DNA from: Lingula anatina
Lineage: Eukaryota; Animalia; Brachiopoda
Direction: 5' to 3'
Assembly: GCA_051362555.1 (NCBI GenBank)
Contig: CM120642.1
Location: forward strand, 24,056,001 to 24,120,000
Length of the DNA: 64,000 bases
A program made the position numbers and the translations under genes. Positions within the stretch are counted from its first letter, which is position 1, and the number at the start of each line of letters is the position of its first letter. The notes below the pieces were generated by a model. The model worked only from the letters and a program-made list of their open reading frames with translations, searched no databases and was not told the DNA's origin. Of the stretch, positions 3,301 through 50,792 are shown piece by piece.

Positions 3301-6300
3301 TTGATTTTAAACTTTTGTTTAGAATGGCGATAAACATACATGTATTTATTTACAAAAATATGGATCAAAACTGTTCGCAGACGGTAACTTACATTAAACC
3401 TGTGACTGAAACTCTCTTGCCACAGCATCATCGTTTTAGACCATGGTCCATGTAAATACGACACTAAATTCACATTTTAACTTAATACCACACAATTGCG
3501 TATGCCTACATATGTTTTAATCTTAAAACGTTTACAGATTTTGGCTCGTGGAAACATTGTGTCAACAAAGAGAGTCACCGTGGATGCCGCCAAGCCACTC
3601 CAAGTAGCTATTACCCCAGAGATGGCGCCTAAATCTAAGATGGTCATCTACTATGTGCGTAGCGACGGTGAAGTTGTTGCAGACAGTCTTAATTTCAACG
3701 TGAAGGGAGCTTTTAAAAACCAGGTATGCTCAAAACTTGACAAACGTTTTTTTTTTTTTGGGTTTTTTGCTGTGCGGAACAGCAAATTGGTCCAAACTAT
3801 TCCACGCGCAGTCAAATCAGTTAATTAGATAGTGATTCAAGAACAGCAAGATAGCCTACAGCTGTAACCGTCTTAAGACTGAGGTATAAATTGACTTCTT
3901 TCCATAATATTCAAAAACGTCAAGAAGGTGACGATCTTTATTTAAAAGGAGCAGTAGGCATTGTAACCTTACTTTTCTTACTGCTCTGAATAGGTAAGAA
4001 TAATTTTACTATATAAATATCATCGTCAATACTTGCCGCTTTTCTAGGTCTCCCTTCAATTTGACAAAACCAAGGCAGAACCCGGCCAAAAAGTGAGCGT
4101 GTCACTGTCTGCCGATCCTGGATCGTTTGTAGGCCTCTTGGCTGTAGACCAAAGTGTGTTGCTGCTTAAATCTGGGAATGACATCACTCAAGAGGAGGTA
4201 TTTAATACATTTGATTTTTTATGGAAGTGTGGGCCTCTTTCTTAGTATTCAAAATTACGCTCATCAAACGGATAAATAATTAAAGCACAAACAATTATTG
4301 TTTTTTTACACGAGCCCCCCTTCAAATTATCCTGGATCCGCCCCTGGTACGCATATGTGTCTGGTTTTTGAGTGGCGAACATCTGTCCAGGTGTAAAATA
4401 ACCACATACAAGGGAGAATTTGAGAAAATTGGCTATTTGGTAAGCAAAGAACTATGTTTCAACTGAATCAAACAAAGACCATTCTACCATGCTTTTTTGT
4501 TAGGTATTGGGGGAATTGGATACATACGATACAAGGAAAGAGTCGTTTTATGGTTGGGGTGGACGTCCAGTCATTGGAAGAAAGAAGCGTTCGATTTGGT
4601 GGTATCCCATTCCGATAGGTGGCACTGATGCACATGACATGTTCCAGGTAAATAAAAGATTGTTATACGGTATATGCAGTGTATATGGTCAGATCTGAAA
4701 TCAGAACGGCATATGCATTATCTCAAGAACCCCTCGAACGTTATATAGTAGCGCTCCTTGATGTCATCTTTCATTTCTCTCAAGAAGCACTGATTGTTTT
4801 TCATGGACGTTAGTGTACAAGTAGACATCACCATTTTATCAGATTTTCAAAAAAGAAAAGCAATATTGTGCTTCGTTTCTGTAATCGTTTATCAATATTT
4901 TTTTCAGAACACCGGCGTCGTTGTTTTATCCGATACAATGCTTTACCAGCATAAAGAACCAATGATATGTAAGTAGCAAGCGCATTAATATAGCCTACTG
5001 TGTGCAAAACAAATGTACCCACATTCATGCCTTACAGGTGTAGGTTTAAGTTATGAAATAAAATGAGCGGGGCGCTTAAAGAGGAAGCGCTAATATTAAA
5101 AAAGATGTGTTTATTGATTTATTATCGCCCCAGTATAAACACCTGAGAAAAAAACATGCACGAATGCATGCTTATTTTGTCAACATTACTTATATTACTC
5201 GATTATTAATTATTATTAGATGAATTAGAATAAGTAGAACGTTTATTTTTCTGTCCGTCTTTTTTAGTTTTAATGCTCTGTTATATACCCAAGCTAAAAT
5301 GAATGCATTGGTATAATTACATTATTTTCAGGATATAAGGATGCTGAGTAAGAAATGTGTTTTCATACATAAAATTTCAGTTATAAAGCAACATCTCGTT
5401 TAAGATTTAAGTCATACAAATGTTACAGCGGTATAGCCGAAAAATAGAGGAAATATCAGCAGTTTTTTTTAAATGTTTTAGCATCTAATTAATATTTAGG
5501 GTAAGATATTTAAATGGGTAATAATTCTTCGTATGAGATATATATTTTACAATAAAAAAATTTGTGAACGACTCGTAGAAATATGATATATTCTGTTTTG
5601 CCACTAAAAAGGCAGTTTTAGCTTTTATTCTGATATCTGAGCTTGTCTTTAAACCACGTGACCCCCATTGATGGCTATACTCTGTTATAATCTCCTAAGA
5701 GATTATAACTAAAAAAATTGGAAAAAAAGACTAACTTTGAATGTAAAAATGGATTCAATAAACATTGGTAAGTATGGGAAAATTGCTGTTTACTCCAGGA
5801 AAATTCATTCTTTTGGCCAAAACGAAGAGTTCTTATCACTTTAAGGATGTATCCTAAGTCAAGAATAAGCTTGATAAGATAAAGACATTTTAGTGAATCA
5901 TGTAATATCTATTCCAGTGTAGGGTAACTAATTTTCAGTTCTTTTTAGATACTTGGTAATAATAGTATAATGCATTGATTACTTGTTTCTATCTCTGTCG
6001 TAACTGGGTTGGGAATTGAACGTTGTGCGTTATTAAAGAGATTTCTGTAGAAACCCAATAAAACGTTGAAGCAAAGAGATAGACATATCTTTAGGTGAAG
6101 GAACCCATTGGCATTCAATATACGGATCTGAGACTTTACTAGAATCGGAAACGGATAACATGCTGGTACTTCATACATGTAGCAAATCCGCCATGACGAA
6201 CCCCCGCAAAAGTGGATAGAGTGCAAAATGTTTTCCTGGATATTTAACCGTTCAGGATACATAATATAATATGTGTTGGTGAATGTACAACAACAGTATG

Positions 6301-8010
6301 ATTTTGATATGAATGTTTAGATCCTCCCTTGCCAATGGCGGGTGTAATGCCGAATGTCATTCCAAAGCCAAATCCCAATCCAAATCCTGGCGGCACCACC
6401 GGGACACAGCCACTGCAAGAGGTGGGGAGAATACGTAATGTCTTCCCGGAGACATGGCTTTGGCAGAATGCCAGTATCGGGTAAATTTGAAGACTGTGTC
6501 GGGTGGATAAAAAGACTCTCTACATGTAATTATTAGCTTTCAACAGAGCTTTTTGCAGTACTGCTACTGGATACTGTATTTGACAAGTACACCATATCAG
6601 CATTGTGGGGTGCAGTATAAAAATGATAAAAATATTTTGGAATTTTCAGTCTGGATGACAGTATGTCACACCAGAAAAATAGCGCAATATTTTGCACAGC
6701 TTTTGTCTGATTGCTTGAAGAACATTGCCCAATGCCCTGTCAAAATTCTCACCAGGTTTATCTATTAAACAGAGAAAGTGTTCAGTAGTCGGCGTTTTAC
6801 TAGAGCCAATCACGATGAATGTGGGGGAATAACGCCCAAGGCTGTTCAAACATACGTAAATGTACATTGTACATTGTAAGAACAGGCCCTATGGGCAATA
6901 CAGATGTGCTACAGAAAACCAGCCAATTTGATCAAACTTAATTGAGCGCCAGTCTAAAATTAGAGATGTTTTTTATCCACCTGGTTTATAATAAGCGACC
7001 AGTTTGCTGCGGATATATAGTGCGCTGCTTCTCACTACAGATCCACCATTGCCTGGATTCGGCGGCGGCGGCGGCTGGGCAGGGGGTATTATGCCGGCTG
7101 TGGCAATCAACGGAGCGGCGGGCGCGGGTGGGCCCTTGCCGGTTCCCGCTGTCACCTCCGCTCCCGTGCCTGGGAAACAGCCACTTCAAGAAGTAGAGAA
7201 AATACGTAACGTTTTCCCAGAAACGTGGCTGTGGCAGAATGCAAGCGTTGGGTAATTCAAGTCATCAGAAAAGGGGCAGTGCGTGGAGATGTTATTGGTT
7301 TTGTGATGATGTGGCGTTTTTTAGAGAGCGTGTTTTTGTGGGATTGGCTAAAGCAAGAAACCGATGATTAGTTCTACAAATAATTAATGAATAATTCACC
7401 TTCTACGCGAAAATGCTAGATAGTTGTCGGGTTTCAGATTACAAATTCGCTGATTATAAATGTTTGATTTTGTGTTGGTGGATGTGATAGACGGTAAGTA
7501 GCAGTAGTTCATAGAAACTGTGGGGCAAATGGAAAAATGTGAGTTTGACTCGAATGACGCAAAATGACTCGTGAAACCTATCTGGAAGGTCACCTATCTG
7601 GAAGGTCACCTATCTCGAAGGTCACCTATCTGGAAGGCTACAACGGAAATATAGCTCGACCATAATATTTCTTTTTCAAAGTTACTTTAGTACTATAAAA
7701 TGAAACACCCGATAGTTATAAGACAGCATATATGCACAAAATCTTACTTAAGCAACATGACCCCATTTTAGATCGATTATTGAAAGAACGCTTTATGTAA
7801 ATGTAAGAGAGAAACACACAACATGTGTTAAATGGTAGGATTTTATATGACTTTTTATCGATGAATGAAAAGATTGAAAACATGCTTAAGGACATCTCTT
7901 TACTTCTTAAAGATACAGGTAAATCCCATGTCTTCTTCTCCTAAACATATAGATAAGACTGTATAATAATAATATTAATAATAATAATAATAATAATGAT
8001 TATAATAATA

Positions 8011-8047
<37 letters not shown>

Positions 8048-9756
8048 TTATCTATAGTCTAAAATCCATATAAAATGTTCAGTAGGCTTGACATAGGTAA
8101 AATGAACAAAATAAGATTACCAAAGAAAATGAAAAGGTAGTTAAAATAATAAGATATGAACTAAAGATGTGAACTAAAATGTGATGTAATTGATGAACAG
8201 TTAGGATTTTAAGGTATTAAAAATAAATTGTTCAATTTAAAAGATAACAGTCAGTCAAATCAGTTATAAAACTTTTTGAAAATATAAAGACAATCCGAAT
8301 GAATGGGTTTTATATTGTTACCATCAACACGTGACCCCCTGATTTTTTTTTTGCAAGGTCCGTATAGAATGGAACTGTAGTTGACTATGAAAACGATAGG
8401 CCCTGGTGTTGGGAGCGCACTACTTATTTGATGTATTGTTTTGTTTTCACCATTATCATATTTTTTGAACTTGATTTAAAGAGGGGTAAACATTTAAAGC
8501 GCAGGCTTGTCTTCCACATGACCGTCTCTTACCAGTTGTTCAGCATACTGCGTTTGTTCCCTACTTAAACCTTTATGTGCTAATTGCTTAGCAAAGAGAC
8601 AGCAGGCACCATTTTATGATGGGCTTTGGTATGACCCGGCCGGGGAATGGACCCACAACCCTCTGCACTGGAGTCGAGTACTCTAGCATTTGAACCATTC
8701 GATCTAGTATAGTTAGAGTAACTGAATGTATATGTGTACAGTTTCTATTGTGAGAGGATCCTAGAGACGCCCCTTGATTTACATTATGATTTGGTAACGT
8801 GCTCGTTTTACGCGTCAGTTCATCTTGCCGCTATTGCGAAGAGAACGATGGCGGTATCGTAGGGAACCCAAAAACCATACCACGTATCCAGACCGCATTA
8901 AACGAAGAAATTGAAAATTAGTGCCTTTAAAAAGGGACCACAAAAGCGTGGAAATAGATCTGAATTCACCTTCTTCTGAATAGATATTGTGTTTCGCTAT
9001 ATTTTCAATATTATATTTACAATTATCAATGCGTGACTTCATCTCCAGACCCTGAAGTAAGACCTATGGTAGATATGCTCGGTGGTGGCGGGCTCCCAGT
9101 GCCGGCTATAGCAAAAGAAACCATAGGTCGTCCAAGTGGTTCATCCACTGGAACATCCGGTCAACAGACACTTCAGGAAGTGGACAGAATACGTAATGTT
9201 TTCCCGGAGACTTGGCTGTGGCAGAATACGAGTCTAGGGTAATACATGTATAAACTGATAGGGATAGTTAGCATATGCTTACAGCGTAGAGTAATGGTGT
9301 TGATTTCTTTTTGGCGTATGTGAGTAGGGCAAATTCCAAGCATTCACCAAAACTAAATGGAGTAGTTACATAACCAGCTAGAGCATAAGGTAAGCGATAC
9401 ATATTAGAGAGCGTCAAGTGCGATTTTCAACCCTCTATGGTCTGTAGTAAGGGGTCGTTAGTATATGTTTACATTGCGGAGTAAAGGTCTTGATTCCTTT
9501 TTGGCGTATGTGAGTAGGGCATATTCCAAGTATGTGCCAAAACTAAATGGAGTAGGTCCTTTACACCCGCAAGTGCATGAGGCAAATGATGCATGTTAGG
9601 GAGCCACGAGCGCATTTTCCAACCTAGTCCTCTGTGGTCAATAGGCCAAGATCCGCTACAAAATGTCAGTTTTGCCAGTACCAGATTTCCAGAAACAATT
9701 GGCTGTGGTTGGAATGAACATGTCTTTGATTCCAATTCTCCTTGCAGTATATAAAT

Positions 9757-9803
<47 letters not shown>

Positions 9804-12800
9804 AAAAAGGTTTCCTGGCATTAATCGCAACGCAGTTTGTTTTGTTTACGTGTTTGTTTATCATTTATGTGAGAAAACAGACCCGCCAAACCTACAATAT
9901 CGTGTGGTGAAGAATGCTCTAAAAGCATACCCAAATCACCCTTGAAAATGTTGCTTTGGCGTTTACATAACAATATACTGGTATGTATGATAATGTGCTG
10001 TTTTTGATGTATATATTTTATTTTTTTCATCATGAGTTGTACAGGTACTTTGTCAGTAAGTTTCTTTGAGATTATGTAATGTAGTTGTAAGGGATAGACC
10101 TGTTTCAAACCACCGCCAAACAACTGGGGCAGCCTAGTGCGTGGTTTATGTAACGGTTTAATATGCATACATGGCTTCGGGCATATTATATCGATGAAAG
10201 CGCTGGATATATGCCTTTCAGAATGTATGGAGTTCTTGTAGACTGTTTTCAAATCCAGCACTTCACTGACAGGATTTATTTCAATTTCAATTCACTGTAA
10301 CTTTTAACGGAAAATTGGCCTACATTGATTATTTCGTAAACAGGGCGTTATCCGTATAGACCTCCGTACCCCAGGTACAGACCAAGAGGTCCCTCTAACG
10401 GGTCTGATGGAAGAGGAAGGGGTCCTGCGGGCCCTGCTGGTCCTGCCGGCCCAAGGCCGCCAATGACGCCAAGCACACCGAAGGAGAACCCAAAAGACTT
10501 GGCAGAAGTAGAAAAAATACGAAAAGTATTCCCAGAATCATGGCTGTGGAACAATGTGACAGTTGGGTAGGACAAGGAACAAACATGTCCCATTCACCCC
10601 TAATTATCATATATTTTTAATTTTCAAATTATATGGTGCAATGCAATGGTGCATGCTATCTATCTATCCTTATATATATCACAGTGTTCATACCCAGGTA
10701 GCATATCATTAACCTCGCTAACACTCCCCATAAACTAACTTGATAGTACGTGTGAGGGTTTTACTGGTCTGTAATCTCGATGTTACCACGTTCATATTTA
10801 TGCTCATTTAAATAGACATGTAGTGAAGCAGTGGACACAAAACCAGGTACATGTAATTTATATATGTATTTATGGAACTAACAGTACTGCGGTCTACACT
10901 TTCGTTCATGCACAGATGTACAAAAGATGTTGGGTATATTGTAGTCGACATACATGTATAATTAACCAGTGATCAATTTCAGGGGGTCTTCGGGACGTAT
11001 CATACCGTTAATGATAGCTTACACATGGTGGACAACTTAAACAAACATTGTCCAATGTTTGTCATTATTTGGCACCTTGGTAGACGCATGCTCTGTCACC
11101 ATGCATATTGTCTAACAAAACCATATATTGGTTATTTATACATTTATGAAGTGAGGAGGTACAGGCCACGACCAGGAGGCTGGGGACGACGATTTCGCTT
11201 CCGCGTGAGAATGGCGCGTCCATCAATCCGACTAAAAGTAAATTCAGTCGCCAAGCCAGATGTTGCAACCACCAGGCCTAAAAACGAAGGAGCTAATCCA
11301 GAACCTCGCATCAGAAGGATCTTCCCGGAGACATGGTTGTGGAGCAACGCGACAACAGGGTAAAGAGTGGGAAAATGGAAGAACTTGCACCTGTATATAT
11401 TAGTATGCATGACATTAAGGATACCCAATACTTTGGAGAAGACTTCTAGCCTACTGTGTACAAGCATGCCTTTGTTTTTTCATGAAGCATGTGGTCAGAG
11501 ATTCTTGATCTGTTGTTTTCAGTTACTCCGACCTTCATTTGTCCTTGGTTATGAAGTGCATGGTTTCTTTTTTATGTCATTTGTCCTTGGTCATGAAATG
11601 CATGGTTTCTTTTCTATGTCAGTCTATGTAATGTTGCATGTGGCAATGTCGTTCTGAAAAATGTTTTTGACGGCGCATGTCCTAAGAAAAAACCAAATAA
11701 CACGTGCACCAAGACCTCTTACTTTGAAGCTATTTCTTTATGATTCATGATACCGATTAACATTGGGGTAAACACTTGCAGTTTCGAAGCTAACGTTTTG
11801 TGTTTAGCTAATTTAATTAGTCTTTTATTTATAATATATTCTACAAGAAAAGAAACGTTACGTCACACGTACGTCACTGCCATAAATTACGGTTAGAATT
11901 AAATGGTGTGGATATCGTCTTCAGAAATATGCTTAATTTTGGGATCATCTTGGGCTTCAGCTGAGACTCATGCTCAGTATTTCTGTCTTTCGGCAAGACC
12001 CAGGAGCTAAATCCATTATTAAGTATTTTGAAGGGGGTAGGTTGATGGTCCAACTTTCCGTATAAGACTACGTAACAATTCAAGCAATAATAAGAAAAAG
12101 CTTGTTTTGATGTCTAGGGGGAAGAGTGGCCTTTACAATAAGCCCTGTGGTGGATTTTTCGTCGGAGACTGATGGTGATTCTGATGCGGGAGATTCTGAT
12201 GATGGTGCAGTCGAGAAAAGTGATGGGGGTTTGACGGATCTTGGGGCGATCCGTTCGTTTTTCCCTGAAACGTGGCTTTGGTCCAATATATCTATTGGGT
12301 AGGCGAGATAAGAGAGTAACCTTCCTTTATAACACACGTTCGTATGCCAGTGGATCTTCACCTCTCTGTGAATGCCATACTGACGTTACCAAACTAACAA
12401 TTTTATTTTGGCGGCAAAATGGTGCAAATGAACTTATACTCAGCCGTTTGCTTTCAACTATCTTTAATATAATACCTATCTGTAAAAAGGCACCAGTTCA
12501 ACGCTTCATGAGGGGACCCGTGACAGACTAACATTTCATTCAGGGTCCGTGGAAGTTGAGTACTAGTTTTACTTCAAAGTCATTTGGATAAATCCCATTA
12601 TGGTTCCATATTTTGTGGTTAGCAGGCAGCCTTACCTTCTGGAGTTTTGGGAAACGGAAGTCGGTCGCGTTACTAACCTAAAGGCAACTCCATTGCGCAA
12701 ATACGAACAACTGCTCCTTCAAGGCTCCTACCCTAGGTTCTAGATTCCGGTATTGCCAGCTCGATCTTGATTTAACCCATATCAGCAATACCAGGCTCTA

Positions 12801-15800
12801 GCGAACACCGACAACGAGGGCGTCCTTCTTCAAAATTTTGCCTGGGGCGCTTCCATATTTGGAAGTCACAAGTTTAGTACGTCACAGCTGTGTCCCCCTG
12901 GAGCTCCCATATTTGGAAGTCATGTCTCGTACGTCACAGCTCTGTGCCGCCTGGAGCTGCCTTTCCCGCCTTTCGCTGACGTTATCTCGTGCAGACGAGA
13001 CAAGAAGTAAAGTGGCTGACGTGGAGTTTGAGTTTTAGACGAAGAAAATCTTGCAGTCGAAGGCTGATTTTGGTCTTGCCATTGCGCAGCCCTTATGTAT
13101 AGTGGTATCGGGCATACAGTGTAGCTGTCAAACTTGGCACACGGCAAGCACGTGTATTGCAGGAGCAAATGTTTTTTGATAAGCAAATAATACAAAAAAA
13201 AAAAAAAACATTGGATATGTCTTTTTCTTTTAGAAACATTATTTATTTTTCACTTTACATCTTAAAAACAGTAAATAAAATAAAATAAAGCAGAATTAAA
13301 TCTGTTTTACGTTTCATATGGCTCTAATGACATTCAACTGCAGATTCACTGCGGAGAAGTTCTTTTTGATTGACGGTAATCGTACACTGTCGCTGTTCTT
13401 CAGAGCTCACTTTTGAAGCCCGATTCACAGTGACTCTGACACTCAGGGCAAAGGCTCTATATCGTCTCCTCTTTTTATGGTGTTCGTTTGGGATATATAT
13501 TGAGATGCTTTGTTGTGTCCAGACACAATTAATTGAATCCAAATGCACCTGACGTCTCTATTGTTATAAAAATCCAACCATCTACATGTAGTAAATTTTG
13601 TGAAACAGAAAGTATTGTATTTGGCTTATTAATGTGGTTTCAAATAAGATATTCATTGGAATAATACTGTTATGGTCTTTGTATTTAAACTTTGAAGACT
13701 GGCCCACCCCAATGCCAGGGACAATGCCAATGCCAACGCCAATGTGGCTTACTTCAAGAGTCCGCCCCATGCCTTCAATTGGTGGTGTCGTCCCAACGCG
13801 TGCATCATCATCATCATCGACTTCTGCAGGCGGAAAGTTAACCGAAGTGAAAACAATAAGAAAGTTCTTTCCAGAAACGTGGTTGTGGGCAAATACTACA
13901 ACGCGGTAGGCAAAACTGTTTGAAAAGTGACTTTTTTAGTGCACAGCTTCTCTTTATCGGCATTAACGACAGATGCCCACATCGAGAGAAGATTTTTACC
14001 CATCGCCTTTACTACCTGTGAATATAGTATTGGCTCATTCCCTAGAATCAGCGCCTTACTTTGGGGGTCCCTAGAAAACGCTTTTACCGTGGCAAGAATG
14101 ACTTATATTGTTTAATACGCTAGTCTGATATGAATAATTGGACGACATGATCGACAAGAAACAGATCCATAATGCACAAGACGTCAGTTATAAACTGGAG
14201 GACAATTTCAATGAAGCAAAAGGGTTGTATGTAACAGGAACAGTTATAGAACAGTGTGTATGCCTTATATCACGTTGGTTTCTTTTCTCCGACTTTGCTT
14301 TTAGAAGAGTGGCTTTTTTTCTCCCGCTTCATCTCAATGTGGTGTCTCGATCTGCTTTTATATCACGCTTTTATGCTTTTAGGTTTTGCTGCTACTATAT
14401 GTACGTATGCTTTGAATGCATACATGTATTCTTAATTGTCTATCGATAAATGTACATGTACGTGGATGGCATTCAATCCTTTAATTTTAAGGTTTCTCAG
14501 CACTTGTTTACTATATTTCATGTATATTCCATTCCGATAGATTAATTTACTGGTACATGTCTTTACGCGTGGCCGATTACCAAATTGCATTTTTATTTCG
14601 TTTGAGCCTCTCTCAAAGTAAATTAACTTGTGTTTCTCACGAGAATATTTCTGGTGCCTTTTTATGTTTTCCAAATAGATTGTACGCCACAATCTTAAAC
14701 ATTAACAATATTATCTTAATACCCTCTAGTACAACTGGTACGGCTGCCCTCAGTACCATCGTGCCGGACACTATTACGTCATGGGTGGCCAGTGCGTTTG
14801 CTGTCCACTCATCATCTGGGCTTGGAGTGGCTGCAGATACAGCAAAGGTATGACTGCAACGTTTTTTTTTTATAGAATAAAGTCGAGTTTTCGCAGCTTA
14901 CATTTTAAGCCCTTTTTGGTAATGTGTAGATTTAAGTGCTATGTAACGTGTTTTTTTTACAATAATCGCTTTTTTGTTATATGTCGTGTTGTACTAGTAT
15001 ATTGCGTTGCATTTTTATCTACTGCAGATGCATTGCATGGGTTTTCCTATAACACGATTAATATGCTATTGGCTTAATTAAAAAATAACGTCCAATTATT
15101 ATTTTGACCATTTGCAGTTAGAGGCATTCCGCCCGTTCTTTGTTTCTCTGAACTTGCCATATTCAGTAGTACGTGGAGAAGAGCTCATCTTGCAAGCGGT
15201 GGTTTTTAACTACATGGACCAAGATATGGACGTAAGTTGCCAGATAAACTCAAGGACTATTTCAGTTTATAAACGTCATCCGAATCCGCGGTGATACATT
15301 AATGTTCGTGTCCGTTTGTATGTCTGTGTACGTGTATTCGCATGCGGTGTGAGTTTTTAACGAAAATACAAGAGCTGAAGTTGACAAAAGCATTTTAGAG
15401 TAAAAAAAAAAATGAAAAAGAGAAGAAAAAATAAGGATTTGAATTTATCATACACTAGAATACATGTATGTAGACAAATACAATTTGCAATGGATTTTTC
15501 TACTTTGTTAGGTTCTTGTGACACTGGAAAAGTCTAACGAATTCAAGAATATTGTGCTGGACAAAATGGGTAAAGCTACAACAGTGTCTGAGACACAGAC
15601 GGAGACAGTCATGGTAAGTGAATAGTAGCCATCTACACATGTTTACGCCAGGAATAAGAACTGCTTTTACCAACATTCATATTTGTAACAGGGCTGATAC
15701 AATGTACTACAGTCTGTTACATTATCACAGATTTTCGATAAATAGGTCCATGTCATTGGCAGATTTAGCGGGTGTCAGGGGGGTCCTGACCCCCCCCCTC

Positions 15801-18800
15801 GATTTCTGAAAAAAATCACACTAATTAGAATTGTGACTAGCTGAATTATAGTTCTAAACCGTTACCCAATGGCACTGTTCACCCTCTAAAATAACATAAT
15901 TTTGGGACCCGGTGAACCCCACGCCCGGGGGTGGGGGGGGGGGGGGGTTGGGGGGTGGAAAAATGAAGTTCTCGTAGTGAAGTATATTCTTTCACAATGC
16001 CGAAGGTTTTGCAATTTTTTTATGAGGATTCGGTTTTGCTGTGTTTCTTGTAAAATATTTGGCTGTCATTATAATTTCATCTTGCTTATAATGGATGTTA
16101 CTGAATTGAAGATTTTATTAATGGCTCAAATACTACAAAAACATCAAACAACAAAAATAATTACCTGCGCCTAATGTCTTAAAGAATTTATTTTTCAATA
16201 TTTAAAAACCAGGCGACACTGTGAAAATAGTCTTCAGTTATGTATTGAGTTATTAAAAAAAATCATTTTACACATTTGGGGACATTTAGCAGCTTTTTTA
16301 CATAAGTAAAAAATAACTAGGTTAATCGGAGAATGTGACTTGGTAATGCAAATGCCAGTCACGAAGGTTTTAAAATTTAGTCCCTTTTTGGTGTGAGAAC
16401 ATATTAATAAATTTTTTTTGATGATTTGAGTTGCTAGACTGAAATTTGATAAAGTTCCACCAGGACACACAATTCTTCCTCTTGCTTACTTTTAATAAGA
16501 ATATTAATCAAAAATGGATATATATATTTAGAATCGGTGTTAACAGGAACAGGTTTAACGCTATACTGTATGTATGCAAAGTCCCCTGTGGGACTTACTT
16601 AGTTTTTTTTGAAAATCATGAAATGAAAAGACAACTTTTTCGAAACCCCCTAAGATCAGAATGATTAAAAATGTATTGCAGTGGATACAGTGGTTCGTCA
16701 TTACTATTAAAATGATTAAGGGTTAAGCTTTCATTTTTACAACACGTTCCGGTATTATGTTGTAGTTTAATTCTCCACGATGTGCAAGATTGGAGGTGAT
16801 ACCTTGTAAATGGGCGTTTGTTCGTAATCCCAATCATTAAGTCTTATTATATTTTAGGTCCAAGCTGGGAAAGGATCGTCCGTTTATTTCCCCATAATTC
16901 CATCTGCTCTGGGAAAGATCGACATTCTCGTAAAGGCACAGTCACCAGTTGCAGCTGATGGTGTGCAGAGACAGTTGCTTGTTGAGGTATACCTGAGCCT
17001 GTAGGCAGTGTCCATTCTTTATTACCACGAACATAATGTTTATTGTTTTTTAACTTATAAGTACGATGCCCAGGCAAAATATGCTCCCAGGTTACGATAA
17101 CCTACGTGTAGCTTACACAATGGCTGCCATTTTTGTTTCGTAATCGTGTGCACTTATGTTTAAAATGTACTGGGCAACACGAAATTGCTTCAAATTGTAG
17201 ATCTGTCCCTGTCTCGACTCTTACTCTTTTGCGCAAACACACACACACACACACACTTCAAAGCACCAAACAGAAGCGCACTTTTTGACAACTCTCACGA
17301 CATCAGTCGACGTCACTTTTTTAAGCACAACTCTCATCTAGTTCTTCTCTAACACATTTTTCAAGGCCGAGGGTGTTCCTCAAGAGTACAACCAGGCTGC
17401 GATGATCGATTTAACCAGCAAGTCAACGTTTAGCAAGACGTTCCAAATTGAGCTTCCATCCAACCTCGTGCAAGGGACTACTCAGATACAGGCATCTGTC
17501 ATAGGTAAGAAAAGACGAAAACTGTCATAAAAGACGAACATGGCGTGCTAGATTCAGGATGGTAAAATAAATTATCCAACAAGTGAATCTTTATCCCCCT
17601 GCCCAAAACTGTTAAAATGGCGATTAATACAAAACCCTATGACAAAGTGCATCCAGGTAGAGTACACGTACAATAAACCGATACAGTAAAATGTCAAGTA
17701 TTTGGAGACTATAAATGAAAAAAATATCATTCATTTGCAGGTGATTTAATGGGACCAGCCATGGCGGACATCGACAGCTTGTTGAAGATGCCATACGGCT
17801 GCGGTGAACAGAATATGCTCCACTTTGCTCCCGATGTTTTCATTTCAAAATATCTTACTGAAACAAACCAGTTTGTCGGTGAGATAGAGAGCAAAGCCAT
17901 TTCATACATGGAGAAAGGTATGTGCCTTTCAGTCTCGGTAAAGTATATTATATTTTGTTGAATCATTATTGCATGAAACCACAATTTATGTCTTAACCCC
18001 TCCTTTACTAAGAGCAATCAATAATAAGTTCTATCCACTTGAATGTTTTAAATATTTAAATCACCGTAGGTCTCTAAAATGACAGTCTATTACAGAATTG
18101 TTGTTTATCTATGGTGACTCTTGTAAATTATTCTATAATCCATAAATTTATCTTTTTCTTTTATGCACATATATTATGTTGTGGATCATAAAGGTAACTT
18201 TTCGTTGTGAGTAATGCAATGTTCTTCTTCAGGCTACCAGAAGGAACTTACTTACCAACACTATGATGGTTCTTTTAGTGCGTTTGGGAACAGAGATTCT
18301 TCTGGCAGCATGTGGTAAGCTGAATTATGTGGGTGCGCGTGTGTGTTACTGTACCTGTGCAAGCGCACGTATGTGTGCGTGTTTGAGTGCGCCTGAATAA
18401 GTACATAATCCTTCGTGTGTTTATGTGTTCACTTTGATTCGTGTATATAACCCAAGTGATTCCCTGGTTCTGGAGAGCCGTAACCAGTGAAGGCTTCATA
18501 TTATATAAGACGTGTTTTCTAAAACTTAGGTGGCTGGTTCTCGACATTAGTGTTTTATTTAAACGGTATTGAAACTAACAGTCAGTTAAGAACAGATGTC
18601 CCTTCATGTTAGGTTTTCCATATTTTTATCACTTGACTAAACATCTATTAATGTACAGGTAGACATTATTGGTAAAACTCGGTTGACAATATTTCAGGCT
18701 GACCGCATTTGTTGTAAAATCTTTCCACCAAGCACGTGGCCTCATCTTTATCGATGACGAGCTTCTTACCAAAGCTATCAACTGGATGATTAGAAAGCAG

Positions 18801-19592
18801 AATATAGATGGGTCCTTCCCAGAACCTGGCCGTGTACTCCATAAGGCAATGCAGGTAAACAAATTGAGATAATTACAGTTAATCAGATAGATGCCAAATT
18901 GGTGAATGTGCATTTCTCGTTACAATCACTAAAAATAAGGTATATCCATACCTCATGTTTGCTATAGTATTTTGAATTTCAATGGAAGGAAATGTCGAGA
19001 TAAACTGGCAAACAGGATCCAGCTTTGTAAGCAAATGTATTCTAATTGTAACTTTAACTGTGTAACCTGGCACAGTTAAAAAGATATTTACACCGTACAG
19101 TCTGATATCTACGTTCTTAAATGATTCTCTAATGTATGCCAGATTCACTTCCGTTTTCTAGCAAATATTTGCTATTGTTTACGATGACTTGTGTCTAAGT
19201 AGGCCTAAGTAGGCTACATTTGGTGTTCTAAAGGTTTTTTTTTTTTTTTGAAGAATTACTTTTATGTTGATTACTGTATTAGGTGCATACAATATTTTGA
19301 ACAACATATAAAACTATATGATTCATTTATGTTTTAGGGTGGTTCATCGTCAGGCGTGTCTCTGACTGCATATGTTGTGATCGCTCTTCTGGAAAATAAG
19401 GACCTGGTTAGTAATATTTATTATTTAATCCTATTGTTATTCAGGGTTATTTTGTAGTATGTAAACGGCATCAATCTCTACTTACCAAATAAATTGAAAA
19501 CCAAACCCATACAACAAAGAATGAAAACAGCTAAATCTAAGTGTACGAATTACATTTTAGAAAATTCTCTAAGATGACTATACATTAAACAG

Positions 19593-19635
<43 letters not shown>

Positions 19636-22600
19636 TGGATAATCTTGTTGGTAAGTCGAAAGCCCATGTGATAGCAAATAAATAAATAAATAAAAATAAT
19701 AAACAGAATGATAAATAGATGGTCTTATTTTATATCGATATTTCAGCCTAATTCTCATGGAATCACCTCCGCCACTGCAAGCGCCGTAAGCTACCTTGAG
19801 AACCAAGTGACGTCCATGTCGGACCCTTACGGTCTGTCCATTGTCACCTATGCCCTGCAGCTGGCCAACAGTAAGAAGGCGGACGACGCTTTCAAGAAAC
19901 TAGATGCCTTGGCAACACTGGAAGGCACGTTCTCGTCAATAAACCTGCTTTAGTGTAACAACCCTTTCAGTTGTCTGTTAGCATAAGACAACAAATTATT
20001 TTGTGAAGAGTATAATGGTTGCATTATTACCTCAGAAGCCACGGTCACTAAACAGCTCCTCTTCAGAAAGCAACATTTCTGTAATGCTGTTTTTGTCAAC
20101 CGTTGTAAATTGTGAAATTATCTAATATCAACCGGGTGCAATCGATAAGTAAGAATATATTTAACCGGTTGCACTCTTGGTGTCTTTCCCATTTTCCAAT
20201 CGAAACGTGATGTGCAATTAAATTGATCCTACCTAGAACTTTGTAGAAAATACTAAATACGGTGATAACTAATAAATATATATATGATATAAATGGTATT
20301 TCTCTCCTTTTCAAAGGTGGCTCCAAATACTGGAAGCAGCCCGAAGTCGCCAAGCCGGCGGGGCGCTATAGGAACACCTACGAGAGACAGCCCAAAGCTA
20401 ACAATGTGGAGATGAGTGCGTACGCTCTCCTTATCTATGCCGAGAGGAAGGACCTAGCAGGAGGATTGCCTGTGCTGAAATGGCTGATCTCCCAGCGCAA
20501 TGCGCACGGAGGGTTTGCCTCAACTCAGGTAACTTATTCTTCCACCAACGTATTGTACACGAGGGTTCGCGTCAATGCTAGCAAGTTTCCCAAAACTTAA
20601 TTTATTACACTCGATTGATATTTATTATTGCCCCACAGGACACGGTGATGGCGATGCAGGCGCTGTCCATGTTTGCTGCTAAGATCTACACTGGGTCGGG
20701 TCAGAACATGCAAGTGACCGTGGCCAGCGAGGGCTCTACCAGAACACTGAGCGTTGACAAGACGAATGCCATCATCCTACAAACCTTACCGGTAATTCAA
20801 AATTTTTAAATACTTTAACAATTGGTGGTGATAAACATACTGAGTACTCTTTCCATTTAGTCAAGTTCAAGTTTGCTTATTACACTGCATGATATTTTAG
20901 ATAAAAGCGGTACAATTGCATTTTAATACTGCGTATTCTGTAATTAGATTTCTCTCTCTCCCTCCCTTTTTCTCTCTCTCCCCCCCCCTCTCTCTCTCTC
21001 TCTCATAGCTAAGAGTCTATATATTATTGTTTCTTTCATAGCTCCCAAGCAGTACCAAACAGGTGGCCGTATCGGCAACAGGAAGCGGAATGGCTCTTTT
21101 CCAGGTAAGATGACTTATTGTACCAGATAATTATTAACACCAATCTATGATGTTATGTAAGTATTAGACGCCCCGTTGAAATAATGTTTTTTGGCTATTC
21201 CTTTTCAAACAAATATTAGGAATTATATTTGACAGACAGACCAGTCCAACATTAAATAAATTGGTTTAAATGGCAGCAAATGGAATAAGTTTTATTTCAA
21301 ATCCATTTTCGAGGCTAAATTACCGATAAACTTAGTCCACGAGGTAATGGAAAATACAACATGTTCATTTGATGCAATCAATAATCATTTTGGCATCGAT
21401 TGATTTATCGTATTGTTAGTCTAGCAGTAGAATGAATAGGCGTGCATATGCAATGGCATCGGTGTAAATGACAAAGAACATATCTGATAACCTTGCAGTA
21501 CTATAAAAATCAACTCTACGTTAGTATAATTACAAAAGACTTACTTTCACGCTTTTCTCTATAGGTGTCCGTGTCGTATAACATAGATAAGGTGGAGCAA
21601 GAGCCGTCCTTTGCTGTGGAAGTCTCCCTGTTGAAGGAGAGCCAGAATAGCCTTATGGTCAAAGTGTGTTCGAGGTACGTACCTTTCATATAAAACCATA
21701 ATAATCGCCACCACGATTCAAGTTCAGAGTCTCAGACCAACTAAATGTAGTATTTTGAAGTATCGTGATTTGTTAGGCCAGAATCAGCACAAAATCAGTT
21801 TAAGAATTGTTGTACTTGGATAGCTGCATTTCTGAGATTCTTAGCTAGGGATGAATTTAAGGAACAGAACTTAGGATATTTGACAGCTGATTGTGTTGAA
21901 ATCTCAATAACACTGAGTGTCTGTTTTCGCAGGTGGCTGGAGAACAGTCCAGCAAGTGGCATGGCGGTGAAAGAGATTGGAATACCTAGTGGATTTGAGG
22001 CTGATCTGGAGAGCATTTCACAGCTTTCTACACTGAAGAAGACGGAGAATGCCTTCAGGAAGATAGTGGTTTATCTTGACGAGGTTCGAATGACGCCAAT
22101 AAAACGCAGCTTTCAATTACTGTAATTGTGCAATAGAACCGTATATTGCAAAATAATTTCCTGAAGAGTTTCAGCAATTTCCCCTTTAGAATGTAACATA
22201 ACCTATGCAAAACCTTTGAGAAAAATAACGATCTATAAATGCGTTTTCTGGCTCTAAATATCTGAAATTCACCGATATTCATACCCAGAATGACAGAAAA
22301 ATCAAAGTCTGTTTGGGTGCAGATAAAATATAGCAGTATGTAAACTTGGCTTTTTCAATGAGTTTCTTTAACTTTCACATTTTGAGTTTTCATCCCGTGT
22401 TGTTTCCAGATTAGCGCCCAGTCAACTTGCATCACCTTCAATGCACAGCGTGTTGCTCAGGTGGCCAAAGCCCAGCCGGTAGCTGTTAGGGTTTACGATT
22501 ACTATTCCCCAGGTATTCCAATATTTCCTGCTTACAAAAATATTACCTGAAACTGCATGATGTTTTGATTGTCAACTATATTTTCGATTGGCCGACACAT

Positions 22601-23333
22601 TTTTTTCTATTAACAATTTCACTTTCATTCTACATTTAATTGGCTCATTGTACCAGATAATTATTAACACCAACTTGTGATGTAATCCAATTGTTAGATA
22701 TCCCCTTGAAATAATATTTTGGATATTCTTTTTTAAAATAAACGTTGAGGATATTTATGTACCAATTCAAGGTTTCCTATAAACAATTTCACTTTTATTT
22801 TTCATTGATATGATAATTGAAATACGTTTAACTAGATTTTCTACTGTGCAGGAAGGGCATTTGCATATAATATTATATAATATTATTGACGTTGAAATAA
22901 TTATTTCATAGATTTTGATTTCTTAAAAGATGTGTTGAATTGATTGACTTAATATTTGCAGATAACCAGATCACCGTCTTCTACCAATCGAAGGTTTTGA
23001 CCGACACCACGGTCTGTGACGTCTGTGGCCAGAACTGTGAAATCTGCAAGAAGGTAGGAACACCTCGGACTCTTCAGCTGTTTTAGCCCCAGGCTTACTA
23101 TTTACCAATTACTTTTTATATAGTTTTGAATATTTTAAATAGTACCTGTAACAAAAGTTTTTGAAAAATAAATGAGATCGATAATGTTGAAGCACGTTAC
23201 ATATCTGAAGTTAATCTTTTAATTTACGTTGAAACAATCACCCATGCTGCTAATGCGACTTAGTCATACCTGCATAATAAAACGCATTTCACCAGCATTA
23301 CACCTGTCTTTCATATCGTTTCAGGGCAAGTAG
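304..23333 (+). CDS. TEP: Thioester-containing protein (iTEP / CD109-like, alpha-2-macroglobulin superfamily); 5' exons lie upstream of the window
   Basis: Phase-consistent exon chain read from sequence. Constitutive exons 304-388 (VLPKFEV), 723-831 (YTYGKAVEG), 1226-1453 (FKPGL), 1865-2113, 2509-2607, 2900-2962, 3538-3723 ([10 protein letters not shown]), 4048-4197 ([16 protein letters not shown]), 4504-4647 (RKKR), 4908-4968. Then one variable exon from 6321-13905. Then 14730-14847 (VPDTITSW), 15118-15231 ([16 protein letters not shown]), 15512-15613, 16858-16986, 17366-17504, 17741-17917 ([10 protein letters not shown]), 18233-18314, 18698-18854 (GRVLHKAMQ), 19338-19406, 19747-19924, 20317-20528 (GGFASTQ), 20639-20791, 21042-21104, 21565-21674, 21933-22083, 22410-22512 (VYDYY), 22962-23053 ([11 protein letters not shown]), 23325-23333 (GK*). 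Confidence 0.96.
4504..4647 (+). CDS. TEP: TEP exon with furin-type beta/alpha processing site RKKR (4579-4590)
   Basis: tag|GTA TTG...[48 protein letters not shown]|gtaaat. Confidence 0.9.
6190..6250 (+). pseudogene. Decayed variable (bait) exon remnant psi-1
   Basis: gaa ccc ccg caa aa- gtg gat aga gtg caa aat gtt ttc ctg gat att taa reads EPPQ/[12 protein letters not shown]. This aligns with [17 protein letters not shown] of the intact exons, with a 1-nt deletion and a stop. Confidence 0.5.
6321..6480 (+). CDS. TEP: TEP alternative bait exon V1 (Pro/Asn-rich)
   Basis: tttag|AT...GG|gtaaat; 160 nt, phase 1->2; (Y)[53 protein letters not shown]. Confidence 0.92.
7041..7251 (+). CDS. TEP: TEP alternative bait exon V2 (Gly/Ala/Val/Pro-rich)
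   Basis: ctacag|AT...GG|gtaatt; 211 nt, phase 1->2; (Y)[70 protein letters not shown]. Confidence 0.93.
7577..7636. repeat. 16-bp tandem repeat (cacctatctggaaggt) about 4 copies
   Basis: Directly visible repeated unit. Confidence 0.8.
8520..8700 (-). mobile_element. tRNA-derived SINE (degenerate)
   Basis: Minus strand reads a tRNA-like head (ggttcaaatgctagagtactcgactcc...gggtccattccccggccgggtcataccaaag) followed by aaaatggtgcctgctgtctctttgctaagcaattagca, the layout of lophotrochozoan SINE2 families as recognised by eye. Confidence 0.6.
9049..9238 (+). CDS. TEP: TEP alternative bait exon V3 (Gly/Ser/Thr, mixed)
   Basis: ctccag|AC...GG|gtaata; 190 nt, phase 1->2; (Y)[63 protein letters not shown]. 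Confidence 0.93.
9280..9640 (+). repeat. Diverged ~190-bp tandem duplication inside the bait-exon array
   Basis: tgatt[t/c]ctttttggcgtatgtgagtagggca[a/t]attccaag...aaaactaaatggagtag occurs at ~9301 and ~9491; similarity continues to ...ctct[a/g]tggtc. Confidence 0.8.
9600..9725 (+). pseudogene. Decayed variable (bait) exon psi-2
   Basis: gttag|GG is a phase-1 acceptor; it reads (W)[32 protein letters not shown], then a 2-nt insertion before tgg ctg tgg (WLW); no phase-2 GT donor. Confidence 0.7.
10344..10566 (+). CDS. TEP: TEP alternative bait exon V4 (Pro/Arg/Tyr-rich + collagen-like GPA repeats)
   Basis: aaacag|GG...GG|gtagga; 223 nt, phase 1->2; (W)[74 protein letters not shown]; absent from the + strand ORF track. 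Confidence 0.92.
11152..11359 (+). CDS. TEP: TEP alternative bait exon V5 (Arg-rich)
   Basis: atgaag|TG...GG|gtaaag; 208 nt, phase 1->2 (acceptor weaker, start approximate); (L)[69 protein letters not shown]. Confidence 0.88.
11406..11679 (+). promoter_or_regulatory. Cluster of (T)GCATG Rbfox-type intronic splicing elements downstream of V5
   Basis: TGCATG at 11406, 11557, 11599, 11635; GCATG at 11464, 11487, 11675. Confidence 0.5.
12118..12298 (+). CDS. TEP: TEP alternative bait exon V6 (Asp/Glu/Ser acidic)
   Basis: gtctag|GG...GG|gtaggc; 181 nt, phase 1->2; (W)[60 protein letters not shown]; this frame is absent from the ORF track. Confidence 0.92.
13698..13905 (+). CDS. TEP: TEP alternative bait exon V7 (Pro/Met/Thr/Ser-rich)
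   Basis: ttgaag|AC...CG|gtaggc; 208 nt, phase 1->2; (Y)[69 protein letters not shown]. Confidence 0.92.
17741..17917 (+). CDS. TEP: TEP thioester exon (GCGEQ at 17797-17811)
   Basis: [35 protein letters not shown]; canonical thioester motif. Confidence 0.97.
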
Positions 23334-27685: not shown

Positions 27686-30600
27686 TTACAAGTAAGTCAT
27701 GCCTTTCTCACATATGTATCCGTGGTACTCGCAATAAGAAGTGACGTTACACATGACGTCATGAAAGTCGTAATCCGGTACGTATAATCCAACACAAGAT
27801 GCAGCCTCTCCTACTGGTACTTGATTTGGCTCACCATCGGCAAAGCCCCAGTACTCGCTGTTTATCGTGGCACCGGTGGCAGTCCACACCCACTCGCCGT
27901 TCACTAATTTACCACTAGTCCACCAGTTTCGGCCCTTCATGCTGCTTGACGTCCAATAGTCCCCACAGCAAGAGCCGGAAAAAACCTGATTTTCTAGGTG
28001 AAGCAAATGTAAAATATTACATTGCGGTTACATGTTAAAATTGCATAGTCAAGGACGTGTTTGTGTGTGTGCGTGCGTGCGTATGTGAGAGAGAAAGAGA
28101 GAGAGAGAGAACGAGAGAGACAGACCCAGAAAAACTTTGTATATTTCATAAATAAAAAATTATGTCCTAGCTTCGGACCCATTATCATTTTAAGCAAACA
28201 TCACTGACGCAAGTGAACCTGATGCTCGTTCCAAAATAGAGCTCGTCTAAATGTACCCCTCAAAGCAACGTGTTCTTGCAACAAAAAGATGGAGCTAAGA
28301 GCGGACGTCTCGATGTTGGACACACTCACCCTGCATTTCCCGGATCCTTGTCTTGAGATACTCGTGCTCTGTTCTCGTTTCTATGGCGACCAAGTCAGCC
28401 TGGAAATAACTGCATAGTTGTCTGGCTTTCTCCCATCCTAGCTGTATTGACGGCGTATTTATGAAATAGCACCTGTTGTCATGTAGATGGAAAGGCTGGC
28501 TGCACATACCTAAAAAAACAACAAAAAAGTATCTGTATCATCCGTGTGTAATGAATGAGACTAACGTAAGGGTGAGTGGGACACTTTCCCTCCTTTAGTC
28601 CCCCACCTGATATGCATAAAAGCGTTTAGAAAAGCTCTTTCCTTCAATATGTGATGTGGCCAAACAATTTTCACGGTGCATTAAGATAAACAGTAAAAGA
28701 ATATCCACAATAAATTCGGCAACCGAGAGGTGCGGCAACATATAGATAATTGCGGTAGTATTTATGCCGAAACATCAAAATGAATAGCCCCGCCGTTCGA
28801 GCCTTTTAATCAGATTCAGATCAGATTAACCAATCAAAGCAACGGAAAGGGGGTCACGTCACCTTCCCACCAGGCCATGCCATGTAAACAAAGCAGCATG
28901 ATCGGCTGTAATGAAGAGTCTGAGGAGGGAGACGCGAAATCTTCGCCAAATTCTCATCTTTCGTGTTGCATGCACATAGAAGAAGGTAGCTAATTAAGAG
29001 ACTCTAGATACCATCACACGTGTTCGCTGGGAAACTTTTAGAGTCGCAGCGAAACAATGGCTGAAATTTGGCAGCAGAGAAGCCGCTGCTGTTCAGTGGA
29101 TCCGTACAGTACGGATTTAGATAAGGATTCGACGATTTGGAAGCCAAACCACGATGTCACTTTTCTTGCTACAGAAAGCTAATTAACAAGAAGGGGCTAT
29201 CTCAGGCGGCAAAGAAGTATGAGAAAGCTGAGAAACAAGGCAGTCCTGCTGAAGAAGGTATGTCAACATATTGTAATTTGTTTTTAAGTCAGCCCCGATC
29301 GTGTGATGTTTACATTGTAAGTGGCTGATGTTACATAACAATATGTGACTGATAAAAGTGATATGAAAGAAAGAAAATAAGAAAATGATAAAAAAGTTTA
29401 TTAGTGTTATTATTATTTTATTTGTAAATACTTAAAGGTTTTAAGATATGAAACAACTCCTCTCTGTTGAATCAGACCCCATTTCCAGAGATTAGATAGA
29501 TCTACTTTAGGGGTTCACGCTAAACAGCTGTCAGTGGGGCGGACACGAAAGTTAAATACCCCCTTACAGCTTGTAGTAGGCGGGACGGACATTTAAGCCG
29601 GATTATCTGACAGTAATCTAGTTAGACTCCCCGCGGGGACAGATCAATCTAAAAGCTCTGGGAATACAGCCTAAGCTAGCTGTATGTTCTTGCCATGATT
29701 AACATCTCATTATTAGTTCATCCATATTTATCATAATTAGCATTGCATTTACACAAAATAATGTAAGGCTTCACACAACAAGATATACAAACAAATGTTA
29801 TGGTGGGATTTTATGAGACAGAGGCTTAAGTATCATGGTAGAATCTTTTATGTTATTTGTGGAGTGTTCCTCCCCCCCAATACATTGCTGCACATGTGCA
29901 ACCATTAGTGAATATAAATATGTATAGGCTAAGCCCAACTTCAATGAGAATGTATTTTAGGGAATATTTACTGTATCTTGTGAGCCAGAAAAAGTAGGAT
30001 AGCTTTTCACAGAACAAGCTGCAATGTGATTAATTTAATTAGGACTGTTAGGAATAATCCTTGTAACTTTCCCTTATGAATAGAATCAGTAAAGGTATAC
30101 ATAAATAGTATCAATAAAGAAATACGTTGACAAACAGTATCAATTAAGGAATAATGATAATGAGTAGGGTGACTGGTAGATATAGTTCAGTTTAAAGAGA
30201 AGAGTCACTTTTATTCAAGGCATCTGATATTAATCTGGGCAGCAGAATGCTAGTGGGCTCCCTATTAATTATTAGATCTTTAAGCTTGATTAATTTGTCT
30301 TAGTTGCAACAAATATTAAACAGTGGGTCTCATTTGCCTATAGTTTGTTACAGCTTAGTTCCTCATAAAAGGAACATGCTGAGCCACTAATACATTGAAT
30401 CCTATACCTACCCTATGCCCTTTGAATCATGAGGATATATGTAATTATAGTTGTCAATATCACTTGGTGTCAATCATGTGATAAACTCACATGCGACTGT
30501 CTTATCTTATTTCATTATTATTCATTTATTTTATAGTTAAATCATAGTGATTGTATATACAATTGCACTTGCAACAATCAAGGATTTGCGGTCTGCTCTG

Positions 30601-50037: not shown

Positions 50038-50792
50038 ATGGGAGAGAAGTATTTCGCTTACGTTTTGGTCGTCTGCGTTGCTGCATTGGGGATGGCAGTG
50101 CCTTTGCCAGACGAAAAACTCCCCGTGGTTGAAGAGATAAAGAAGTTCTGCGCAGAGCATGAGGAGAATACACCGTTTATGTACGCTTGTAATCGTTGTT
50201 GGTGTGGCGCCCCAAACCAACCGCCGGCGTGTACTAAAAAGGGTTGTGTCAAAGGTACGAGTTGAGCAATGGCCAATATTCTTCATTGAATATTATTTTA
50301 GACTAAGTTCCTATTTTTATTTTAGCTTTAGCATTAAACTGAGTAATCTTTCAATGAGTGTGGTCAGCTAAGATGGCTAAATACTGTTTTTTCGTGTATT
50401 ACCCTCAATTCTATATCCATTCTGGAATATATATTTTAATAGATCTACGCTTTTCAAATCACAAATTTTTTTAAAAGACAAACTTCAAATCAAGACAGAT
50501 ATTTGAAAATATTTCCGTCTGAAGAAAATTATTATTTAACTCATTATATTGCGAATTTCGGGTACAAAGATCACTATTTTAATTACATTTTTTTTATATA
50601 GAGTGGAAATGTTTTATCAGATGGTTTTTCAAAATTCGTTATTTGAGATGAGTTTTTAATTAATTTCCAGTGGACTGCGGCTCCCACGATCCATACAAGA
50701 CATGGGAGGCTGATGGCGAAGAATGTAGCTGTCAGTTCTTAGCCAACAAGGCTGGGTGGGAAGTTTTTGGTCCCGTCTGCAAGAAACCATGA
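50038..50792 (+). CDS. Secreted pacifastin-like serine protease inhibitor + 4-Cys C-terminal domain (PAC-2, putative P1 Lys)
   Basis: Exon 50038-50254: signal peptide then C-x12-CNRCWC-x8-CTKKGC. Exon 50671-50792: VDCGSHDPYKTWEADGEECSCQFLANKAGWEVFGPVCKKP*. Phase-1 GT/AG intron. Confidence 0.88.

Follow-up and report, generated by a model that had tools for sequence, protein, structure and literature searches.

A cassette of seven tandem bait exons in a CD109/iTEP-class thioester protein gene of the brachiopod Lingula anatina

How many different protease baits can a single thioester protein gene encode? The question is raised by a 64,000-nucleotide stretch of Lingula anatina DNA (assembly GCA_051362555.1, contig CM120642.1, positions 24,056,001 to 24,120,000, forward strand), hereafter the window, in which seven exons, termed V1 to V7, lie in tandem between two constant exons, C1 and C2, of a thioester protein gene. 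We consider it very probable that this gene, of the CD109/iTEP class, carries a seven-exon cassette from which V4, V5 and V6 are used one at a time and the other four likely in the same way, each exon likely supplying a different protease bait. The exons concerned are as follows, RNA joints being listed only where supported by at least three reads.

4908..4968, + strand: C1, final constant exon upstream of the cassette, ending in phase 1; joints to V5 and V6
6321..6480, + strand: V1, 160 nt, Pro/Asn-rich; allele with a longer NP repeat in full-length XP_013406061.1; no listed joint
7041..7251, + strand: V2, 211 nt, Gly/Ala/Pro-rich; identical in XP_013382629.1; no listed joint
9049..9238, + strand: V3, 190 nt, mixed composition; identical in XP_013382631.1; no listed joint
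10344..10566, + strand: V4, 223 nt, Arg/Pro/Tyr-rich; 29 reads to C2 in 5 runs; identical in XP_013382628.1
11152..11359, + strand: V5, 208 nt, net charge +13; 31 reads from C1, 106 reads to C2 in 4 runs
12118..12298, + strand: V6, 181 nt, net charge -9; 10 reads from C1, 7 reads to C2; identical in XP_013382632.1
13698..13905, + strand: V7, 208 nt, Pro/Met/Thr-rich; seen in sequence only, with no listed joint and no database protein
14730..14847, + strand: C2, initial constant exon downstream of the cassette, starting in phase 2; the Pfam A2M match begins here

Seven exons that fit only singly

All seven exons lie where the original prediction placed them, and each one has AG/GT ends, measures 3n+1 nt, stays open in frame and closes with the motif IRxxFPE[T/S]WLW. 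A six-frame scan of the window for FP[ED][TSA]W finds seven places, all of them V exons; a DNA profile built from the V tails recovers the same seven (E at most 8e-16, by construction), the next match having an E value of 0.062. An N-glycosylation sequon that follows the motif is likewise kept in all seven.

The predicted frame shift, on skipping the whole cassette or on including two or three V exons, is borne out when every combination is translated. Only seven of the 128 possible V subsets give a full open reading frame, and these are exactly the single exons (1229-1250 aa within the window); in the other 121 combinations, translation ends 1939 nt or more ahead of the last junction. Four V exons, or all seven, restore the downstream frame, yet stops then arise inside the cassette, and none of the 35 four-exon sets is open. 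Read-through past each V donor also meets an in-frame stop. Because V4, V5 and V6 are joined to neighboring exons in RNA, and RefSeq proteins match V2, V3, V4 and V6 exactly, the V exons are not assembly artefacts.

RNA evidence for one exon at a time

We examined eight of nine raw-read runs (all but X3), six of which gave exon joints; the remaining two, X1 and X2, gave none and are uninformative. For X4, X7 and X9, the stretch analyzed contains C1, and 15 of the 22 rows of its joint list are covered; for X5, X6 and X8, the stretch excludes C1, and its table of 14 rows is complete. C1 is joined to V5 by 9 reads in X7 and 22 in X9, and to V6 by 10 reads in X4. At the other end of the cassette, all three exons for which joints are listed reach C2: V4 by 8, 2, 5, 10 and 4 reads in X4, X7, X9, X5 and X8, respectively, V5 by 20, 45, 16 and 25 reads in X7, X9, X6 and X8, and V6 by 5 and 2 reads in X5 and X8. 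In total, 142 reads leave a V exon for C2 and 41 enter one from C1, covering V4, V5 and V6. No joint between two V exons is present in the complete table for the stretch without C1, and neither such a joint nor one that skips the whole cassette is among the 15 of 22 rows listed for the stretch with it.

The RNA mapping that had been proposed as a check therefore agrees with the prediction as far as joints are listed, and mature mRNAs carry V4, V5 or V6 as their one V exon. The claim of at least seven isoforms stands in part: V4 to V6 have RNA support, whereas no joint is listed for V1 to V3 or V7. Single use of these four exons is nonetheless likely, judging from RefSeq models for V1 to V3 and from the sequence of V7 itself.

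Exon use also differs strongly between samples. Within one study, run X5 has 10 reads for V4, 5 for V6 and none for V5, and run X6 has 16 for V5 and none for the others (Fisher p 3e-9, on read counts that are not independent).

Selection of a single exon

All splice sites in the cassette are GT-AG, and its introns measure 560-1797 nt. V donors score weaker than those of the constant exons (p 1.7e-4), and V acceptors do likewise (p 0.01). In pyrimidine content, the V acceptors show no significant deficit (p 0.07). We searched ~250-nt flanks in 24-nt windows for a shared docking site that could pair with all seven exons and found none that exceeds 15 control introns: the best mean duplex energy is -20.3 kcal/mol upstream (controls -15.3 to -22.3) and -18.3 kcal/mol downstream (controls -15.8 to -23.1). 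The top upstream candidate sits in a high-depth repeat.

The cassette introns also hold interspersed repeats at 5650-5845 and 12729-13420, with high or mixed-strand read depth, a 115-nt local duplication (9260-9374 and 9450-9564) and an AAT/ATT palindrome (7962-8046).

Most likely, the choice among weak exons is regulated and decay acts as a filter. An alternative would dispense with active exclusion altogether: V exons would be included fairly independently, and decay alone would leave single-exon mRNAs. The 121 non-single products are all candidates for decay, no common docking site was detected in the search above, and simple steric exclusion is unlikely because the introns, all GT-AG, are 560-1797 nt long. 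In five of the six informative runs, however, the V-to-C2 counts are near those of the neighboring constant joint, and in X6, X7 and X9 a single exon takes nearly all listed reads, which shows strong regulation. We therefore regard decay alone as unlikely, although decay of a minority of transcripts is still compatible with strong regulation.

The bait region and a proposed mechanism

The cassette occupies the bait, or variable, position that had been claimed for it. The V-tail profile aligns to residues 729-742 of human A2M, directly after the bait, which is delimited as P690-T728 (PMC9352918). In an AlphaFold model of the N-terminal half with V4, pLDDT is below 50 for residues 679-739, and a strand follows at 743-751. 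On the strength of this alignment and this model, each V exon is predicted to encode a disordered stretch of 36-57 residues and the conserved structural strand after it. The variable parts range in net charge from -9 in V6 to +13 in V5, the widest charge range among 21 isoform sets compared, and hold from 1 to 11 potential trypsin-type sites per exon.

In human CD109 and A2ML1, bait cleavage triggers a conformational change and thioester conjugation (PMC12927315, PMC9156758). The bait of A2M can be replaced wholesale, the protein being functional once cleavage sites are restored, and a longer bait destabilizes the native state (PMC9352918). The mechanism that we propose starts from two observations: only single-exon mRNAs keep the frame, and the exon chosen varies between samples. 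Weak V splice sites would put that choice under regulation, and products with skipped or double exons would be lost to nonsense-mediated decay. The position of the bait is established, and its function would follow that of human A2M, A2ML1 and CD109: cleavage of the bait would change the conformation of the protein and expose the GCGEQ thioester, which would then bond to the protease or some adjacent surface. With basic, acidic and Pro/Gly/Met-rich baits, the range of proteases able to activate the protein would be broadened or adjusted. The Lingula protein may function as a protease trap or an opsonin.

The V segments could instead serve chiefly as loops of an opsonin that recognize ligands or surfaces, or tune a non-immune extracellular role, with protease choice secondary. 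A histidine 114 residues past the thioester cysteine corresponds to the complement-like state described for BgTEP2, peptides of which reportedly bound to a parasite surface, and the CfTEP isoforms are reportedly sex- and pathogen-specific (PMC7016707, the last as cited there). V5, moreover, is basic enough that it could bind polyanions. Against this stand the match of the V position to the cleaved bait of A2M and CD109 and the predicted disorder of the segment, so that we judge a primary recognition role rather improbable; the recognition and protease-bait roles are compatible with each other.

Several points weigh against a cassette of seven exclusive protease baits. V1, V2, V3 and V7 have no listed joint in the six informative runs, coverage is thin, no joint exceeding 67 reads (three are needed for listing), and the absence of V-to-V joints fits exclusive splicing as well as decay of mis-spliced RNA, which it cannot separate. 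A joint skipping the cassette would be visible only in the stretch containing C1, with 15 of 22 rows listed. The splice-site matrix was built from 27-28 sites of this one gene, and positions -2 and -1 of the V donors are constrained by a Gly codon. The AlphaFold model covered the N-terminal half with V4 only.

Seven chemically distinct baits on one scaffold make a clean test set for a change of protease specificity by bait exons, which is proposed, not demonstrated, in the available text of the cited papers.

Exon birth, decay and variation

V1, V2 and V3 are mutually closest, sharing 51-54 of 66 nt in the tail. Just upstream of V1 lies a further V-like stretch.

6169..6275, + strand: candidate decayed eighth V copy, with a V3-like tail, a disrupted frame and the motif lost

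Among 3144 windows, this stretch is the top non-V match: it scores 80, the runner-up 69, and the mean is 46.8 with an sd of 5.2, although it reaches only E 1.7 with an nhmmer profile of the ungapped tail. It is probably a decayed eighth V copy, and its presence suggests exon birth and death in the cassette. A second candidate relic at 9627-9738, with a score of 65, falls within the window-wide background and was rejected.

A decayed copy also raises the question of whether just three or four V exons are functional and the remainder decaying duplicates, and the listed joints are indeed limited to V4-V6. V1, V2 and V3 are nevertheless present in RefSeq models, all seven exons keep frame, splice sites, motif and sequon, and the tail differences among V exons fall chiefly at third codon positions (268, versus 159 and 117 at the other two). 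The tail of V7 differs from the others mostly at third positions as well, with its AG/GT ends, motif and sequon intact. Decay of the remaining exons is thus very unlikely.

Within V5, the window and the study P3 reads disagree at no fewer than 17 sites, amounting to 11 nonsynonymous and 6 synonymous codons, whereas the same comparison for the constant exons gives at least 1 nonsynonymous and 13 synonymous changes among the sites listed (p 0.002 versus V5; the count leaves out one more change in a constant exon, found in loose ends). Nearly all of the P3 differences in V5 are present in every read, and study P2 matches the window; P3 may represent a diverged population or a cryptic species. The V5 differences show looser constraint on the bait, and a similar concentration of strain differences is described for snail TEPs (PMC9363628). 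Positive selection on V5 is not demonstrated, as the 11 and 6 codon changes among the sites listed fit relaxed constraint equally well.

The variable parts of V2, V3, V4 and V5 resemble those of other species more than 200 composition shuffles do (uncorrected p 0.005-0.015), and those of V1, V6 and V7 show no cross-species likeness above 200 such shuffles. The shuffle null ignores local compositional clustering, and we treat these likenesses as leads only. A likeness between the Arg-rich start of V5 (11152-11230) and the Littorina saxatilis bait in XP_070197541.1 (p 0.005 against composition shuffles, uncorrected) could reflect either an ancient exon or convergence.

Gene model, protein class and annotation

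The gene model comprises 28 constant exons, 10 before the cassette and 18 after it; the window does not reach the 5' end of the gene. Besides C1 and C2, the constant exons are as follows.

304-388, 723-831, 1226-1453, 1865-2113, 2509-2607, 2900-2962, 3538-3723, 4048-4197 and 4504-4647, + strand: nine constant upstream exons from MG3 onward (gene model, Pfam), with an RKKR furin-type site in 4504-4647
15118..23333, + strand: 17 more constant exons, with GCGEQ, the probable catalytic His, the receptor-binding domain and a Cys-rich C-terminal tail

RNA joints connect 4197 to 4504 and 4647 to 4908 upstream of the cassette, and the intron after 19924, in the thioester-domain region, is a GC-AG intron demanded by the gene model. 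Pfam domains MG3, A2M_BRD, A2M, TED_complement and A2M_recep follow in order, with matches in 13 of 24 exon translations, 12 of them above the cut-off; those to MG3 and A2M_BRD fall in the upstream exons. The GCGEQ thioester is intact (codons from 17797), and the likely catalytic His lies in exon 18698-18854, at +114 residues from the thioester Cys in the RefSeq allele and with the same motif in the window model. The stop codon is 23331-23333, and both the window model and RefSeq end in a C-terminus with four Cys, ...CEICKKGK-stop. By eye, the RefSeq N-terminus has the look of a signal peptide, and no hydrophobic, transmembrane or glycosylphosphatidylinositol (GPI)-type C-terminal anchor is seen in the 3' end as modeled.

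Among PDB structures, human CD109 matches best (E 1e-241), scoring above A2M, TEP1 and C3. In a FastTree phylogeny of 42 proteins, built without C3 rows and with SH-like supports in place of bootstraps, the Lingula protein lies within the 36-row CD109/iTEP side (support 100), apart from A2M, and in a lophotrochozoan clade with scallop CfTEP and snail BgTEP2 (support 96). Judged from its sequence, the gene product is a secreted CD109/iTEP-class thioester protein.

As anticipated in the original prediction, annotation of the gene is incomplete. Among 1.84 billion protein representatives, one exon has an identical stretch, in a Lingula anatina 'CD109 antigen-like' cluster of eight members. Five RefSeq isoforms hold V4, V2, V4, V3 and V6 unchanged, each with one V exon after the same constant exon and each ending at that V exon. 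The C-terminal half forms a separate RefSeq gene, so the RefSeq model is split; a second copy is full length with the V1 allele. V5 and V7 are absent from all eight cluster members, and the present model corrects a split, incomplete annotation in which V5, although expressed, is missing. The window differs from XP_013382628.1 at 1 of 457 aa before the cassette and from those RefSeq records at 7 of 718 aa after it; relative to the second copy (XP_013406061.1), there are 14 differences before the cassette and 3 in 718 aa after it. Such near-identity fits L. anatina or a very close Lingula as the source. The Pro-Asn repeat of V1 (6361-6371) is length-polymorphic, with a longer RefSeq allele and an insertion in two X6 reads.

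The notion that V exons are alternative last exons giving truncated proteins, as the five RefSeq models X1-X5 that terminate there and the in-frame stop past each donor might suggest, is hardly tenable: the 142 reads connecting V4-V6 to C2 refute it for these exons, and full-length records with V1 and V4, together with the separate C-terminal RefSeq gene, which sits on a contig of equal length, point to a split model.

Neighboring features

Several further features lie in the window.

27686-28537, - strand: C-type lectin-like exons beside the TEP 3' end; of the two, one matches Pfam weakly (E 0.003)
28800-29100 and 32180-32480: long inverted similarity seen by eye, ~3.3 kb apart, possibly DNA transposon ends
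50023-50265 (+), 52652-52882 (+) and 56894-57388 (-): three exons of the pacifastin protease-inhibitor type, downstream of the TEP gene, with Pfam E values of 1e-5, 5e-9 and 4e-4 in that order, one above the cut-off
34281-34544 (-), 48202-48432 (+) and 55961-56206 (-): chitin-binding peritrophin-A (CBM_14) exons, interleaved with the pacifastin-type ones
62415-63255, + strand: broken open reading frames resembling, by eye, a Tc1/mariner transposase; none of three pieces has a Pfam match

Relation to known systems

Dscam1 has clusters of tandemly duplicated exons from which one exon is used at a time. The Lingula cassette, which had been called Dscam-like, shares the tandem exons and the use of one, but it is a single cluster of seven, with no combinatorial multiplication and no shared docking site detected above controls.

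Human CD109, A2ML1 and A2M (PDB 8s3o, 7q1y and 6tav) share domain order, thioester and bait position with the Lingula protein. One bait sequence is described for each of them in the available source text, versus seven in Lingula, and CD109 is GPI-anchored, whereas the Lingula protein has a Cys-rich tail without a hydrophobic anchor.

Database isoforms indicate that the same block is swapped well beyond Lingula. The block starts after an anchor of the type ...TD[AT]xxYxxxEP and ends ~7 residues past FPETWLW, and for each gene RefSeq lists 4-10 different versions of it in amphioxus and numerous molluscs. Cases are found in oysters, mussels, Mya, scallops, abalone (Haliotis) and a limpet, and three CD109-like sets of amphioxus (Branchiostoma; P0295, P0296 and P0301) have 6, 8 and 10 distinct blocks, although amphioxus CD109 has a hydrophobic C-terminal tail, unlike the Lingula protein. 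Five isoforms of a second CD109-like paralogue in Lingula, XP_013389531-36 (P0313, P0384-P0387), swap this block as well. The mollusc, amphioxus and paralogue sets are annotation models compared at the protein level, with seven records dropped that had no recognized tail or anchor, and some models (chiton, bryozoan, ark clam, amphioxus) fuse two or three blocks. As counter-cases, the nematode Diploscapter has one bait common to its listed isoforms, two Glandiceps isoforms differ outside the bait block, and three other Lingula paralogue clusters have one bait each.

The block in amphioxus raises the choice between a single origin and repeated duplication, and its wide occurrence together with these counter-cases is compatible with either. 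Tentatively, and with some doubt, we suggest that the bait cassette is ancestral to bilaterian CD109/iTEP genes, with boundaries shared by amphioxus, brachiopods, molluscs and probably bryozoans and with exons that are born and lost over time. Certain classes of bait could predate the phyla, as the close periwinkle look-alike of the Arg-rich V5 would imply. On that view, the Lingula baits would offer a ready panel on which to ask if such exons determine the protease specificity of an invertebrate protein.

Among the titles listed in a literature search, outside which most subscription journals fell, none concerned a TEP cassette of Lingula or amphioxus, and neither Lingula nor Branchiostoma is mentioned in the available parts of the snail papers (PMC7016707, PMC9363628). 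Precedent for bait-region alternative splicing, as invoked in the original prediction, is supported, and the rarity of the arrangement was overstated: a gene in the same tree clade, BgTEP2 of Biomphalaria glabrata, has 12 mutually exclusive exons (PMC7016707). BgTEP2 shares with the Lingula gene tandem exclusive bait-region exons of variable length with a conserved C-terminal end, the catalytic His, the protein boundaries of the swapped segment and poor capture in the first annotation. Its 12 exons span 30 kb, versus 7 exons in 7.6 kb in Lingula; its tail motif has drifted from FPETWLW, and its charge range (-4 to +3 in 11 segments seen) is narrower. For CfTEP of the scallop Chlamys (Azumapecten) farreri, which belongs to the same clade, 6 exons and 7 isoforms are reported (Zhang et al. 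2009, as cited in PMC7016707). The six database isoforms that we compared (P0414, P0232, P0239, P0242, P0243 and P0258) swap the same segment, ending in FPETWLW, and GCGEQ, the His, a furin-type site and a Cys tail occur in both proteins; the CfTEP baits seen are Gly/Met/Pro-rich with a net charge of -3 to 0, unlike the -9 to +13 of Lingula. Drosophila Tep2 has five isoforms, with an alternatively spliced exon for the hypervariable region (PMC7016707, PMC5489563, PMC2685406). It and Daphnia TEP2, both arthropod iTEPs, resemble the Lingula gene in this alternative exon (PMC5489563, PMC2685406).

A cassette of this kind will not surprise TEP specialists. The tandem bait-exon arrangement is already known in snail, scallop and fruit fly, and the Lingula gene extends it, and with it the known diversification of thioester proteins, to brachiopods.

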